Shown here piece after piece: positions 10,570 to 16,884 of a stretch of DNA of 64,000 nucleotides (position 1 is its first letter; every line of letters begins with the position of its first letter). Both the position numbers and the translations under genes were made by a program. Under the pieces are notes generated by a model. That model ran no database searches. It was not told the DNA's origin and was given only the letters and a program-made list of their open reading frames with translations. The stretch is from Candidatus Bathyarchaeia archaeon (GTDB lineage Archaea; Thermoproteota; Bathyarchaeia; Bathyarchaeales; DTEX01). The stretch spans positions 43,540 through 107,539 of the forward strand of contig JAWBXB010000005.1 in the NCBI GenBank assembly GCA_038868075.1, given 5' to 3'.

Positions 10570-11106
10570 TTGTGGATAACAATGTGTAACGGGGAAGCAA
10601 ACTTAGAGTTAATTGTTAAATATAAGGATATTGAGGCAAAATTCACCGGGAGCCCTGAGGATGTTATAAGAGCTTTCTTTGGTTTCATGAGTAAAGTTCT
10701 TCCAGCATATGATTTCGCTTCCAACCTAATTCTTACAGTAGACTTGGAAGATCTCTTAAAGAGGATTAAAGGGTTAATAGCGTTTACACCGGAGGGACCT
10801 GTGATAACAATCCCCCGTGAAAGACTTGGTGGAGATAGGAATGTAATAATATTGAATCTTATTAAGGCGTATGTTGGGTATAAAACTGGACGTTTAGAAA
10901 AAGATTCGCTTTCGATGTCTGAGATAATGGCTTTAACTGGCGGCAAAAGTGGAACCATTGCCGCTCGTTTAAGCGAGCTAACGGATATTGGTTTAGTTGA
11001 GAGAGTTGGACGTGGGGAGTATAGAATTACAACACTAGGTGTTAAGTTCTTTTTAGAGGAGGTTCTTCCGAAAATTAAGTTAGAGGGCGGATCTGGATTT
11101 GAGTGA
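10570..11106 (+). CDS. Hypothetical winged-helix protein, paralog family member 2
   Basis: 178 aa. Reads IAARLSELTDIGLVERVGRGEYRITTLGVKFFLEEVLPKIK. The likely start is ATG 10582. Confidence 0.65.
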   Translation: MWITMCNGEANLELIVKYKDIEAKFTGSPEDVIRAFFGFMSKVLPAYDFASNLILTVDLEDLLKRIKGLIAFTPEGPVITIPRERLGGDRNVIILNLIKAYVGYKTGRLEKDSLSMSEIMALTGGKSGTIAARLSELTDIGLVERVGRGEYRITTLGVKFFLEEVLPKIKLEGGSGFE

Positions 11107-11617
11107 AAAAGGAAAAGGAGTTGTTAAAGTTCATTTAGAATTTAACGATATTAAAGCTGATTTTGAGGGGGATTCTGACCAGGTTTTTGAGTCTGTACTA
11201 CGATTCCTATCACAAATAAATCCAAATATCGAGGTTCTCCGGAGGATAATTTATACGCCAGACATTGTAAAACTGATGAATTCTATCGCCGGATTAGTGG
11301 AGATAACACCAGGTGGACCAACAATAACACCAAGCGCCAATCTACCTACTAAAAGCTCTATATGCCTAGTTCTTTTAGGCGCATACATTGGCAATAAGAT
11401 TGGAAAGATGCAGAAGGATACTTTATCCGTAAATGAGATATCAATGTTAATAGGGAAGGCCAGAAAAACCGTGAGCAATGAGATTCCAAATCTTGTTGAA
11501 AGCGGATTAGTTGAGAAGGTATCTGAGGGAGAATATCGAATAACACAGCTGGGAATAAGGAGAACCGAAGAACTAGTTAAATCGATAAAGCAGGGCAGCA
11601 CATTACCTACCAAGTAG
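11099..11617 (+). CDS. Hypothetical winged-helix protein, paralog family member 3
   Basis: 172 aa. It overlaps the previous gene by 8 nt. VSNEIPNLVESGLVEKVSEGEYRITQLGIRRTEELV is collinear with 10570..11106 along its whole length. Confidence 0.65.
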   Translation: MSEKGKGVVKVHLEFNDIKADFEGDSDQVFESVLRFLSQINPNIEVLRRIIYTPDIVKLMNSIAGLVEITPGGPTITPSANLPTKSSICLVLLGAYIGNKIGKMQKDTLSVNEISMLIGKARKTVSNEIPNLVESGLVEKVSEGEYRITQLGIRRTEELVKSIKQGSTLPTK

Positions 11618-11624
11618 ATCGGTT

Positions 11625-12890
11625 ATGGAAAAATCCAATTTTTACGTTAGTGATATATACATCTTTTTAATTTCTCGTAATTGCTTATCTTCTGTTTTAG
11701 GGAGCCGTGAGGAGGTCTTGAGGGGTAAGCCTTTAGCCGCTGTAGTTTCAGCTGGATTATCAAAGTTTGGTAAAAGAGATGGCTTTTCAGGTAGAGAGAT
11801 GTTTATTGAAGCCGCTAAAGAGGCATTTGAAAGATGCCCTAACATTGATCCGAAAAGGGATATTAAGGCGCTCATAGTTGGCAATATGAGTGAATCCTTT
11901 GAGCATCAATGCCACTCGGCTCCAATAATGTCAGACTGGGCTGGCTTATTGCCTATACCATCAGTTAGAGTTGAGGTTGCATGCGCATCTTCAGGAGCCG
12001 CTATTAGGTATGGATTAATTTCAATACTCTCAGGCATGTACGATGTTGTTATGGTCGGCGGCTTCGAAAAGATGACTCATAGAACAACGCTTGATGCAAC
12101 TGAATACTTAGCTATGGCATCTGACTTCCCATTTGAGCAATGGAATGGAGCAACATTTCCGGGATTATTTGCGCTTATGGCAACAGCACATATGAATGAC
12201 TATGGGACAAGTGAGGAGCAAATGGCTCTTGTTGCAGTTAAAAATCATCATAATGGCACGTTAAATCCAAAAGCCCATATACAGAAAGAGGTTACTGTTG
12301 AGCAGGTTTTAAGCTCAAGAGTGATAGCTAAACCATTAAAGCTTTTTGACTGCTCCCTAATCTCTGATGGAGCTAGCTGTGCGATTTTAACTAGACCGGA
12401 TATGGCGAGAAAATATACTGATACACCCGTTTATATAATAGGTTCAGGACATGGGACGGATGCGATAGGACTTTATGAGAGAGAAAGCCTAACAAGTCTT
12501 AAAGCGACGAGGCTTGCCGCTAAAGAAGCTTACGAGATGGCTGGTTTAGAAGCCAAAGATATTGATATCGCTGAGGTCCATGATTGCTTCACAATAGCCG
12601 AGATAATTGCCTATGAAGATTTAGGTTTTTGTAAACCTGGAGAGGGTGGAAAATTTATTGAGGAAGGCATTCCAACACTGGATGGTGAACTACCAGTGAA
12701 CACTAGTGGGGGTCTTAAAGCGAAAGGACACCCCGTTGGCGCAACGGGTACGGCGCAGTTATACGAAATCTTCCTGCAACTGACTGGTCAAGCTGGTGAA
12801 AGGCAGGCTGATGGATGCAATATTGGTTTGACACAGAATTTAGGTGGAAGTGGTGCAACATGCATAGTTCATATATATTGTAGGGGGTGA
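11625..12890 (+). CDS. Archaeal acetyl-CoA acetyltransferase (thiolase)
   Basis: Thiolase motifs VACASSGAAI, HDCFTIAE and GHPVGATG. The first roughly 30 codons look non-homologous, so the alternative in-frame TTG at 11718 (LRGKPLAAVVSAG) is plausible. Confidence 0.88.
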   Translation: MEKSNFYVSDIYIFLISRNCLSSVLGSREEVLRGKPLAAVVSAGLSKFGKRDGFSGREMFIEAAKEAFERCPNIDPKRDIKALIVGNMSESFEHQCHSAPIMSDWAGLLPIPSVRVEVACASSGAAIRYGLISILSGMYDVVMVGGFEKMTHRTTLDATEYLAMASDFPFEQWNGATFPGLFALMATAHMNDYGTSEEQMALVAVKNHHNGTLNPKAHIQKEVTVEQVLSSRVIAKPLKLFDCSLISDGASCAILTRPDMARKYTDTPVYIIGSGHGTDAIGLYERESLTSLKATRLAAKEAYEMAGLEAKDIDIAEVHDCFTIAEIIAYEDLGFCKPGEGGKFIEEGIPTLDGELPVNTSGGLKAKGHPVGATGTAQLYEIFLQLTGQAGERQADGCNIGLTQNLGGSGATCIVHIYCRG

Positions 12891-12894
12891 CATC

Positions 12895-13299
12895 TTGAGC
12901 GGTGAAGAATACCCGCTTACAATTGAGCAATTCTACAAGTTTATAGGTGAAAAGAAACTTATGGGCGCAAAATGTAACAAGTGTGGAAATATTCTTGTTC
13001 CACCCAGACCAATATGTCCAAAATGCTTTTCAAACAATTTAAGCTGGATCCAGCTGGAGAATAGGGGTAAACTTTTAACGTATACTGTTATTCATGTTGC
13101 GCCAGGAATGTTTCAGCAAATGGTTCCTTACGCCATGGGAATAATTGAGCTAAAGAATGGTGTCCGATTACCAGGAATAATCCAAGGAGTAAAGCATGAA
13201 GATCTAAAGATAGGTATGGAACTAGAAGTAGACTTTGACACAAAAATTCCCTCAACGTGGCCTCAATGGCCAAGATACTTCTTTAGGCCATCATCATAA
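12895..13299 (+). CDS. DUF35 OB-fold/Zn-ribbon protein (thiolase/HMG-CoA synthase scaffold family)
   Basis: Zn-ribbon CNKCGNILVPPRPICPKCFS followed by an OB-fold region. Canonical position directly downstream of the thiolase. Confidence 0.85.
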   Translation: MSGEEYPLTIEQFYKFIGEKKLMGAKCNKCGNILVPPRPICPKCFSNNLSWIQLENRGKLLTYTVIHVAPGMFQQMVPYAMGIIELKNGVRLPGIIQGVKHEDLKIGMELEVDFDTKIPSTWPQWPRYFFRPSS

Positions 13300-13350: not shown

Positions 13351-13614
13351 ATGAGCGAGGACGAATTCAGTAAATATGTGAATGACCCTCTCTGGCCAAT
13401 TCTAGTAGAGACTGTCCATGCAATAGTTATGTATAGACATCATAAGGCTTATGTCAGAGAAAAAGTGTTGCGTGAGCAACCAAATATATCGCCTAGAAAA
13501 CTTGCTGCGGATATGGGCATACCACTTGGCGAAGCAATAGTCATTTTATATGAGATTAGGAGCGAGTTGGGGGAGAAGGCAAAATTCAGCGTCTCTCAGC
13601 CTTCAACAACATAA
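13351..13614 (+). CDS. Hypothetical small HTH-like protein
   Basis: 87 aa. Reads [24 protein letters not shown] (HTH-like). Its 3' end overlaps the convergent rpoH by 19 nt. Confidence 0.5.
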
Positions 13615-14138
13615 CGGTAATAGACGTGTTCCCCAGCTGTTGGGCTGCGTCTCGTTATCTTAATTATATCTCCAGGTTTAGCTCCAATAACTCGTACAAT
13701 TGGGTCAGATGTCTTTATGCGGGGTAGTTTATATGGTTCAACACGATATTTCTCCAGAACCTCTTTTCTCTCCTCAGGAGAGAGAATTTCATGCTTTGGA
13801 ACAAGATAGTGCCTAAATATATTGAATGAAGGGAAGTCTTGTGGTATCAGCTCAATATTCTTCCTCCGAGCTAAGGATTTGGCTGACTGAGTATATTTTC
13901 CGCTCACAATTATGCCGTTCTCAACATTCTTAGAACTCATATATTTTGCCATTTGATTAATATATTTCACGCCTATAGCTTCATCTGTTGAAATAACCCA
14001 AATAAGAATCTTCTTACCTTCAGAATCCTCAACAGTGATTAAGGCGCCCTCTTTGGCATTCTCCCTTTCTAGTAACTTATAATTTCTAAGTTCAATTAGC
14101 ACCTGCGTTTTCCTTTCAAGTATAGGGTCAAGAGCCAA
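13596..14138 (-). CDS. rpoH: RNA polymerase subunit H (Rpo5) with an Rpb5-like N-terminal extension
   Basis: The C-terminal 70 aa, [66 protein letters not shown], form the RpoH/Rpb5 C-domain. About 105 additional N-terminal residues sit in the same ORF (TTG start 14138). Confidence 0.9.
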
Positions 14139-14496
14139 AAACCTGAAGCACCCCTTAACCTCAAATATTGTTTGTTATAATCCAGAATAACTCAACTTTT
14201 AAACTTTACGTTATTATTTAGGGTTACTTGAAGAACTACCTCTCTCAGAAAATTAACCATAGCCGCTATGACACCAATAGTCTGTGAAACTATACTAAAA
14301 ATCCTGCTACAACATCTTCTACATTTGACTCACATAAGAGTTTCTAAGGTTTGAATCTGCTGCTTCGGCTGGAACTATGCCTATTGATCTGCCAACATTT
14401 CGCTAACCTGAAAAGGAAAGAGCTTAAATGTTAATTTCGAATTTTCTATGGATTAATGCTGAGATAAATAGGATTTGAGTTCATTTAGGGGATTAG

Positions 14497-16477: not shown

Positions 16478-16884
16478 TTACTTAGGTCTTCTGAGTAGAG
16501 CGAGGGTTGCCATGACGATAGCTACAACTGAGAGGACTATTGAGACAATAAGATATTCTATGGGAGCGGGCGTTCCAGGATCGCCTTTTGGACCTTGTGG
16601 ACCCTGCGGACCTTGTGGACCTCTCATATCAATAACTTTAAATGATGCACTCGCACTTTCACCTACATTATTCATTACAGTAATAGTATAAATTCCAGGT
16701 TCTGATTGCGCCGGAATACTAATTATGGCGGTAAACTCACCATTCTCATCAACAATTACCTTGTTTGGAACAGTAGGTACAATTATTCCTTTCCAAGTAA
16801 CAGTTATTATAGAGTCATGAGGAACAAAAGACTTAACATTATAGCTGAAAAGACGCTTCTCTCCATTTTAATGCCCCTTTTCAT
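16478..16884 (-). pseudogene. Frame-split small surface protein: signal-like N-terminus, Ig-like domain, collagen-like G-X-Y repeats, C-terminal TM anchor
   Basis: ATG 16884 opens MKRGIKMERSVFSAIMLSLLFLMTL and stops at TAA 16809-16807. A second frame, open over 16867..16478 with no canonical start before Met 16675, reads ...SFVPHDSIITVTWKGIIVPTVPNKVIVDENGEFTAIISIPAQSEPGIYTITVMNNVGESASASFKVIDMRGPQGPQGPQGPKGDPGTPAPIEYLIVSIVLSVVAIVMATLALLRRPK. Confidence 0.5.
16568..16621 (-). repeat. Collagen-like triplet repeat (GPQ GPQ GPQ GPK GDP GTP)
   Basis: Six consecutive G-X-Y codon triplets. At nucleotide level this is GGTCCACAAGGTCCGCAGGGTCCACAAGGTCCAAAAGGCGATCCTGGAACGCCC on the minus strand. Confidence 0.85.

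Follow-up and report, generated by a model that had tools for sequence, protein, structure and literature searches.

Does an archaeal RNA polymerase (RNAP) use a subunit H that carries an N-terminal domain of the kind found in Rpb5 (RPABC1), the subunit common to the eukaryotic polymerases Pol I, Pol II and Pol III? The question is raised by a gene in a 64,000-nt stretch of DNA from a Candidatus Bathyarchaeia archaeon (contig JAWBXB010000005.1, assembly GCA_038868075.1), hereafter the window, whose positions are used for all coordinates given here. The initial annotation had read this gene as an rpoH fused to a eukaryote-type Rpb5 N-terminal domain. Papers addressing the point state that archaea lack the Rpb5 N-domain (PMC3479171, PMC1802627, PMC3906176), and Rpb5_N, a domain of the PD-(D/E)XK fold, was a Eukaryota-only family in a 2012 census of that superfamily (PMC3424549). 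The evidence presented below suggests that the gene probably encodes a two-domain RpoH/Rpo5, a functional RpoH rather than a spare one, with a dead-nuclease domain at its N-terminus and a single fusion shared with Rpb5.

Reading frame and domain structure

The open reading frame (ORF) of 180 codons with a TTG start was confirmed, and the translation quoted in the initial annotation proved exact. An in-frame TAA lies 13 codons upstream of the TTG, with no ATG, GTG or TTG between the two. The codon aligned to residue 1 was also TTG in 19 orthologous loci, and most other loci had a TTG 1-3 codons further upstream, usually with no ATG on offer. The next possible start is a GTG at V13; residues 6-12, upstream of it, are conserved among homologues (K10 in at least 90%). 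In the same 90%-identity clusters, NCBI records measure only 72-118 aa and begin at internal Met codons (P0059, P0074, P0282-P0284, P0292). They are shortened because the conserved start is TTG, and constitute a systematic annotation error. Comparison of the N-domain with eight close orthologues gave dN of 0.12-0.22, dS >1.2 where estimable, and dN/dS of 0.04-0.13, synonymous sites being saturated against the closest orthologues. The extra N-terminal ~100 residues are kept in >100 homologues. The 180-aa ORF is real and is under strong purifying selection over its whole length.

The C-terminal part had been described as a textbook RpoH/Rpb5-C, and profile searches bore this out. Residues 105-177 matched Pfam RNA_pol_Rpb5_C (PF01191) with an E-value of 3.5e-33 (113.6 bits, cut-off 23.5), and residues 104-179 matched the NCBIfam RpoH equivalog NF007129 with 116.7 bits (cut-off 83). 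The long-form C-domain averages 59% identity to the solved short RpoH chains of Thermococcus, Pyrococcus and Sulfolobus, compared with an average of 51% for operon-linked Nitrososphaeria short RpoH against the same chains, indicating constraint as for a core subunit; its identity to eukaryotic Rpb5 is only 43%. In yeast, Rpb5 residues R200 and R212 form salt bridges with Rpb1 (PMC1802627). Their counterparts here are R163, which is invariant in 62 homologues, and R175, conserved in at least 90% of them. Judged from its sequence, the C-terminal stretch of 75 residues is the canonical globe predicted to clamp onto the largest subunit.

The N-domain was modelled by AlphaFold2 as a compact alpha-beta-beta-beta-alpha-beta-alpha-beta structure (pLDDT 94.1, pTM 0.86), with helices at residues 5-17, 57-69 and 84-92 and strands at 21-28, 31-37, 43-49, 74-79 and 95-99. 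Residues 1-111 alone matched Pfam Mrr_cat (PF04471) with an E-value of 3e-7 and 30.9 bits (29.2-31.3, cut-off 21). All 33 diverse Bathyarchaeia N-domains searched also matched Mrr_cat, and 32 of the 33 matched NA-iREase1 (PF22722; best E-value among these relatives 1.2e-10). The window protein itself scored 20.1-21.6 bits against NA-iREase1, below the cut-off of 27, and 15.8-17.4 bits against the C-terminal domain of NucS/EndoMS (PF01939), below the cut-off of 24. When the N-domain model was used in a Foldseek search, the EndoMS/NucS nuclease domain came first (E 3e-6, TM 0.70), followed by numerous Rpb5 chains in succession (E from 2.6e-4, TM 0.62-0.70) and, below these, by the nucleases LlaBIII, AspBHI and MspJI and by AF1548 (1y88). 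In the alignment, the catalytic (E/Q)xK, which is Q-x-K in bacterial Mrr-type nucleases, is replaced by W47-V48-I49, and in the main Bathyarchaeia group the catalytic Asp upstream of it shows no conservation. On the basis of these motif changes the N-domain is a dead nuclease, that is, a PD-(D/E)XK domain of Mrr type predicted from sequence and model to be catalytically inactive; it would work as a scaffold or DNA binder instead.

Distribution and the question of a second subunit H

The first search returned 179 homologues, and ~115 of the best 120 were 175-214 aa long. A continuous two-domain ORF was present in 80/80 of the best genome loci, taken from one-genome-per-species GTDB genomes (L001-L080). 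The closest proteins (97-84% identity) and these 80 loci were labelled Bathyarchaeia, save two metagenome-assembled genomes (MAGs) labelled 'uncultured archaeon' and one mislabelled bacterial bin. Locus L076 (DASPTR010000162.1), labelled as the bacterium Candidatus Acidoferrum sp., contains an archaeal long rpoH together with a Bathyarchaeia-type thiolase block and is probably a case of bin contamination. An N-domain profile run against 1.84 billion cluster representatives gave 702 matches at E<=1e-3; 30 of the best 150 also bear an RpoH C-domain, and these are very diverse. Going by source labels where given, long forms occur in several clusters of Bathyarchaeia (175-214 aa), in Candidatus Heimdallarchaeota (P0163 cluster, 188 aa), Candidatus Kariarchaeaceae (P0317, 188 aa), Promethearchaeota (P0324, 184 aa) and Candidatus Helarchaeota (P0348, 186 aa), and in further groups, including a marine group with two tandem long genes. 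Short RpoH was seen in the sequences examined from Nitrososphaeria, Caldarchaeum, Thermococcus and Sulfolobus. Two-domain RpoH is a widespread archaeal form, found also in the closest relatives of eukaryotes. When C-domain identities were tabulated by group, the Bathyarchaeia long forms were ~50% identical to every other archaeal group, and the comparison is therefore silent on whether the long forms make up one clade.

As to the survey of RpoH length called for by the initial annotation, the long form is common in Bathyarchaeia and occurs in Asgard archaea, so that it is no rarity of this genome, and public databases already contain its sequences with the Pfam architecture Mrr_cat + Rpb5_C. 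As to novelty, no description of an archaeal RpoH with an N-terminal domain was found in the full-text literature searched, subscription-only literature lying outside the search, nor does the long form appear in a 2026 survey of small-subunit evolution whose Rpo5 models cover Bathyarchaeota and Asgard archaea.

Other arrangements of the same parts were encountered. Four RpoH proteins of 331-481 aa (P0179, P0211, P0361, P0364) have up to three tandem inactive nuclease domains before the globe, and the last copy in P0179 gives a sub-threshold match to Rpb5_N. In P0373, P0380, P0386 and locus L091 (6001-6429) an N-terminal SAP-like helix-turn-helix stands in place of the nuclease fold; rpoB is not adjacent to the gene for P0380. 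Conversely, P0161, P0164, P0171, P0175, P0178, P0181, P0182, P0190, P0198, P0216 and P0231 have the same inactive nuclease N-domain with the RpoH globe swapped for a Cys-rich C-terminal domain of the pattern CG-x-IP...C-x-G...C-x-x-R-L-I-S-D-N-A-x-F-H. The 133-aa short RpoH call P0368 seems to read through an upstream tRNA-like sequence, and the real protein is probably ~76 aa.

We consider it likely, though by no means assured, that the long RpoH is the sole subunit H of these organisms. The contrary explanation is that it is an extra paralogue beside a short rpoH located before rpoB, serving as an alternative or accessory subunit or as an RNAP-associated factor under particular conditions. 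We regard this as unlikely, but gene order speaks for it. No rpoB or rpoA motifs were found within 6-10 kb of long rpoH in the window flanks and >90 loci, and motif scans of 940 kb of flanking sequence of the loci likewise recovered neither gene. The classical order is rpoH-rpoB-rpoA (PMC10833476), and Nitrososphaeria short rpoH is fused or adjacent to rpoB (P0389); the absence of such linkage is unusual for rpoH and would be compatible with a short copy in the operon alongside the long gene. Moreover, the Bathyarchaeota Rpo5 in the 2026 paper (MEM2791772.1) is two numbers away from Rpo1 (MEM2791770.1), a proximity pointing to an operonic rpoH in one Bathyarchaeota MAG at the least. Duplication of the long gene also fits an accessory role: one lineage has two tandem long copies, and two long copies (L058, L061) come from one MAG. 

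Evidence against the paralogue comes from the C-domain, which is conserved as much as or more than bona fide single-copy RpoH and passes the equivalog cut-off, and from the eukaryotes, which have the long form only. The Helarchaeota and Thorarchaeota Rpo5 accessions of the 2026 paper are far from Rpo1, and the conserved core of the Asgard str cluster is reported to begin at rpoA1. No second PF01191 match was present in the 940 kb of flanks, which represent local sequence only. Searching proteins with the RpoB portion of P0389 as seed recovered Nitrososphaeria fragments only and no Bathyarchaeia rpoB locus, and none of the short RpoH clusters looked up had a Bathyarchaeia label.

Regarding the duplicated loci themselves, the tandem long rpoH genes of L087/L088 (7001-7564 and 7639-8193; 187 and 184 aa, both with Rpb5_C) are located on metagenome contigs of up to 591 kb. 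The two different long rpoH genes of L058 and L061 derive from MAG CSMAG_1099 and may be paralogues or reflect a mixed bin. Large ORFs in L044 and L061 were identified as SMC by sequence inspection, and those in L052 and L057 resemble surface proteins. An S12 match in the flanking-locus scan was rejected as an alternative-frame false positive.

Relation to the Rpb5 N-module and origin of the fusion

The archaeal long form and Rpb5 are linked by the junction of their two domains. Short RpoH chains begin just ahead of the motif (F)NIF-x-H-x-LVP-x-H. Long forms have their last N-domain strand (I-E-L-I-P) at a fixed distance before this motif, and the linker between them is only ~5-8 residues long; the 10-residue block at the linker has the lowest pLDDT of the model (64). 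The spacing of 14 from E96 to H110 in the window protein equals that of Rpb5. Counting back 14 positions from the motif His (H-x-LVP-x-H), one finds E in 62/62 Bathyarchaeia, E, D or Q in 34/34 Asgard sequences and E or Q in 13/13 eukaryotic Rpb5, including those of yeast, S. pombe, human and Arabidopsis. Between the invariant Gly of the hGV motif and the motif His, the distance is 54-56 in nearly all archaeal long forms of every group, and the same spacing was found in minimal eukaryote-type or virus-type Rpb5 (P0367, P0369, P0384). An identical short linker would be unexpected from independent fusions, and we regard the junction as the strongest argument for a single origin, though no proof of it.

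Sequence profiles also connect the two domains. Searched against 177,635 distinct PDB sequences, an N-only profile retrieved eukaryotic Rpb5 alone, with the best match to 9mu7_E (Drosophila Pol II entry family; E 2.4e-5), plant and mammalian Rpb5 chains at ~5e-3, and a nucleoporin as the first unrelated match at E 0.67. For HHalign comparisons, the Rpb5_N alignment was composed of PDB-verified yeast, K. phaffii, S. pombe and mammalian sequences, seven PF03871 database proteins and the Rpb5-like P0250. Against this alignment the Bathyarchaeia N-domain gave 96.6% (score 58.6, 48 columns), the Asgard N-domain 98.4% (score 85.3, 100 columns) and, as a control, the Mrr nucleases 96.4% (score 57.5, 93 columns), so that the best partner of Rpb5_N was the Asgard form. 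Against the Mrr nucleases, the Bathyarchaeia N-domain gave 99.4% (score 115.4, 95 columns) and the Asgard N-domain 98.6% (score 87.8, 91 columns). These scores place the archaeal RpoH N-domain between Mrr nucleases and Rpb5_N. A gap of ~20-25 residues was seen in HHalign opposite the eukaryotic Rpb5 insertion. With the full-length model, Foldseek aligned ~200 columns over both domains to eukaryotic, African swine fever virus and giant-virus Rpb5 (E ~1e-14), short archaeal RpoH covering the C-domain alone.

Several results weigh against the preferred explanation. Pfam Rpb5_N (PF03871, gathering cut-off 27 bits) did not match the window protein, and 0/33 Bathyarchaeia N-domains matched it even at E<=10; sub-threshold matches were confined to 3/15 divergent or Asgard long forms (best E 0.0053; 0.005-0.11 with the triple-domain form included). 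The Bathyarchaeia N-domain is far nearer to active bacterial Mrr nucleases than to Rpb5_N in HHalign score. The motifs common to the N-domain and Rpb5_N (RGY, hGVK, T-x-x-A, IE-h) are all typical of Mrr too, and for this reason two independent recruitments of a Mrr-like domain are conceivable. Judged on structure alone, the match to NucS/EndoMS slightly surpasses that to Rpb5. Finally, the full AlphaFold2 model has a pTM of 0.63 and an unreliable inter-domain orientation, as a consequence of which its rmsd (root-mean-square deviation) to Rpb5 over both domains is ~16 Å.

The homology of the N-terminal segment to the Rpb5 N-domain put forward in the initial annotation is thus upheld by the N-only profile, by both HHalign comparisons, by the common fold and by the junction register. 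The epithet 'eukaryote-type' was not borne out: it is overstated, the domain being intermediate between Mrr nucleases and Rpb5_N, as seen in its HHalign scores (115 to Mrr, 59 to Rpb5_N), the missing PF03871 match and a length ~40 residues shorter. The N-terminal region that yielded no Pfam Rpb5_N match did match Rpb5 in structure, and the full predicted structure aligned with Rpb5 over both domains, with a poor joint superposition.

If the resemblance were due to convergence, Mrr-like domains would have been fused independently in archaea and in the eukaryotic stem, or the long form would have spread horizontally among sediment archaea, and Rpb5_N would be no descendant of it. We judge this rather improbable. 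The generic nature of the shared motifs and the higher Mrr score would be expected under it, as would the patchy distribution of the long form, and the SAP-like and triple-N-domain proteins indicate that the RpoH N-terminus is prone to fusion. It does not readily account, however, for a domain order and junction register that are identical, the His being preceded at 14 positions by an acidic or amide residue in every group, nor for the fact that Rpb5_N aligns with Asgard RpoH-N at a score of 85 (100 columns) but with Mrr nucleases at only 57.5. The insertion is moreover missing from minimal Rpb5 proteins of eukaryote or virus type (P0367, P0369; 166-170 aa), and P0367 matches both PF03871 and NA-iREase1 in precomputed Pfam annotation.

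It is very improbable that the N-part is an annotation artefact, not translated with the C-domain, from a product starting internally at, for example, M63 or M67. The short NCBI records and the weak TTG codon might be cited in its favour, but M67 lies in mid-helix of the predicted folded N-domain, the N-domain is under purifying selection, the TTG is conserved across the family, the spacing of the two domains is fixed and the two-domain ORF recurs across phyla. Acquisition from a eukaryote or giant virus is the least credible explanation. In its favour, eukaryotic and giant-virus Rpb5 are the best full-length structural matches; against it, the C-domain is 59% identical to archaeal RpoH and only 43% to eukaryotic Rpb5, the N-domain is Mrr-like without the eukaryotic insertion, and both Bathyarchaeia and Asgard archaea harbour a deep, diverse family.

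Returning to a single archaeal fusion, the dead-nuclease domain would occupy the site of the Rpb5 N-module in Pol I, II and III, which is also the Rpo13 site of Sulfolobus, at the far end of the downstream-DNA channel (the lower jaw). There it might serve incoming DNA as a mostly basic 'guard rail', offer factors a docking surface, or do both. Mean isoelectric points (pI) of the N-domain are 9.3 in Bathyarchaeia, 9.8 in Promethearchaeota-labelled and 9.7 in Helarchaeota-labelled sequences; those of the Heimdall group are close to neutral and those of eukaryotes acidic. Rpo13 fills a void between Rpo5 and Rpo1N, the Rpb5-N site in eukaryotes, and binds downstream double-stranded DNA (PMC3479171). 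Based on its basic charge and its short tether to the globe, the N-domain is a natural candidate for this void, and the SAP-like and triple-N-domain RpoH variants support the idea that DNA-facing modules were repeatedly acquired at this corner.

The archaeal long form and eukaryotic Rpb5 may both stem from one fusion of a Mrr-like domain to RpoH, after which the eukaryotic module would have gained its insertion, turned acidic and lost its Mrr-like sequence signal. Since the long form is common in Bathyarchaeia and present in Asgard archaea, eukaryotes probably inherited a two-part Rpb5 from archaea. We put at about even the chances of the full scenario, in which a Mrr-type dead nuclease was fused once to RpoH in archaea before eukaryotes, is a working subunit in Asgard and Bathyarchaeia, and gave rise directly to the Rpb5 'jaw' module. 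If the domain is homologous at the same junction, one more 'eukaryotic' polymerase feature moves into archaea; Rpb5_N would gain a concrete origin in an inactivated Mrr-type nuclease, and archaea without Rpo13 a candidate occupant of the Rpo5/Rpo1N void. With a single archaeal fusion, the 'eukaryote-specific' downstream-DNA guard rail would be archaeal heritage that was elaborated later in eukaryotes. This should be of high interest to specialists in transcription and eukaryogenesis, for whom Asgard and Bathyarchaeia RNAP and yeast rpb5 N-module mutants offer testable material.

The locus and its comparison with known systems

The features of the gene and its surroundings are compiled in Table 1. 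Upstream of the TTG, inspection of the sequence by eye identified a possible ribosome-binding site and a possible archaeal promoter.

Table 1. Positions in the window of the long rpoH, its parts and nearby or otherwise distinctive features.
Feature	Position	Strand	Basis or description
Long RpoH/Rpo5, complete ORF	13596..14138	minus	180 codons and TGA stop (13596-13598); 97% identical homologue P0001
TTG start codon	14136..14138	minus	First possible start after in-frame TAA; aligned TTGs in orthologues
N-terminal domain, residues 1-102	13833..14138	minus	Pfam Mrr_cat, AlphaFold2, Foldseek, motif alignment
Internal ATG (M67)	13938..13940	minus	False start in short database entries, e.g. P0059, P0074 (begin MSSKN...)
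Linker QDFPS, residues 100-104	13827..13841	minus	Joins last N-domain strand I95-E96-L97-I98-P99 to RpoH motif
C-terminal RpoH/Rpb5_C globe, residues 105-177	13608..13826	minus	Pfam, NCBIfam, identity to archaeal chains
R163	13650-13652	minus	Counterpart of yeast Rpb5 R200
R175	13614-13616	minus	Counterpart of yeast Rpb5 R212
Purine-rich GAGGT / GGGGTG stretch	14149..14162	minus	11-24 nt upstream of TTG; putative ribosome-binding site, by eye
AAAGTTTAAAAG, TATA-box-like A/T element	14196..14207	minus	58 nt upstream of start; putative promoter of long rpoH, by eye
87-aa ORF	13351..13614	plus	Converges on rpoH, 19-nt overlap with its 3' end; no Pfam match; helix-turn-helix-like by eye
ORF, 178 aa	10570..11106	plus	First of two overlapping tandem paralogues; weak winged-helix-like matches
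ORF, 172 aa	11099..11617	plus	Second of the tandem paralogues; weak winged-helix-like matches
Thiolase	11625..12890		Directly preceded by the tandem paralogues
ChsH2-type zinc-ribbon/OB protein	12895..13299		Follows the thiolase
65-aa ORF	16478..16675	minus	Collagen-like GPQGPQGPQGPKGDPGTP stretch, then hydrophobic C-terminal helix; Pfam Collagen sub-threshold
Radical-SAM protein, 903 aa	48419..51130	plus	Split by intein with LAGLIDADG homing-endonuclease domain

The window has a G+C content of 37-44% and contains ordinary archaeal housekeeping genes and no other RNA polymerase gene. A homologue of the 87-aa ORF was found on the opposite strand just downstream of long rpoH in 48 loci, making it a conserved partner, and the thiolase block (10570..13299) is syntenic with rpoH in many Bathyarchaeia loci. 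Synteny across phyla was considered, as a divergent CTP_transf_like gene adjoins rpoH both in the window and on a Promethearchaeota contig; it was rejected because tblastn supported no relationship of the two genes.

Compared with canonical archaeal RpoH/Rpo5 (75-90 aa; PDB 4qiw_H, 8cro_H, 7ok0_H), the C-terminal 76 residues of the window protein are 54-63% identical and have the same fold. The canonical gene is the first of the rpoH-rpoB-rpoA operon; long rpoH is not, and starts with a conserved TTG. The closest sequence families of the N-domain are Mrr_cat and NA-iREase1, with HHalign to bacterial Mrr-type nucleases at 99.4%, the differences being that here the catalytic (E/Q)xK is hydrophobic and the domain is fused to a polymerase subunit. 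NA-iREase1 denotes a NACHT-associated inactive restriction endonuclease, whereas the long rpoH loci examined were without NACHT or other defence context. Rpo13 of Sulfolobales is a functional analogue only, being an unrelated small helical protein from a separate gene; the basic N-domain described here is a candidate for the same void by inferred placement.

Rpb5 of nucleocytoplasmic large DNA viruses is also a two-domain protein (160-260 aa) to which the full model aligned with E-values of 1e-14 to 1e-9, but its sequence is viral or eukaryote-like and its C-domain identity lower. Eukaryotic Rpb5 has the same order of a PD-(D/E)XK N-module without catalytic residues followed by a RpoH-like globe, and the Arg pair is conserved between the two. 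Its N-module comprises ~140 aa, with a long N-terminal helix and an insertion ahead of the beta-sheet, and is acidic (mean pI 5.7), whereas that of the window protein comprises ~100 aa, lacks ~40 residues including the insertion after helix 1, and is basic (pI 8.9).

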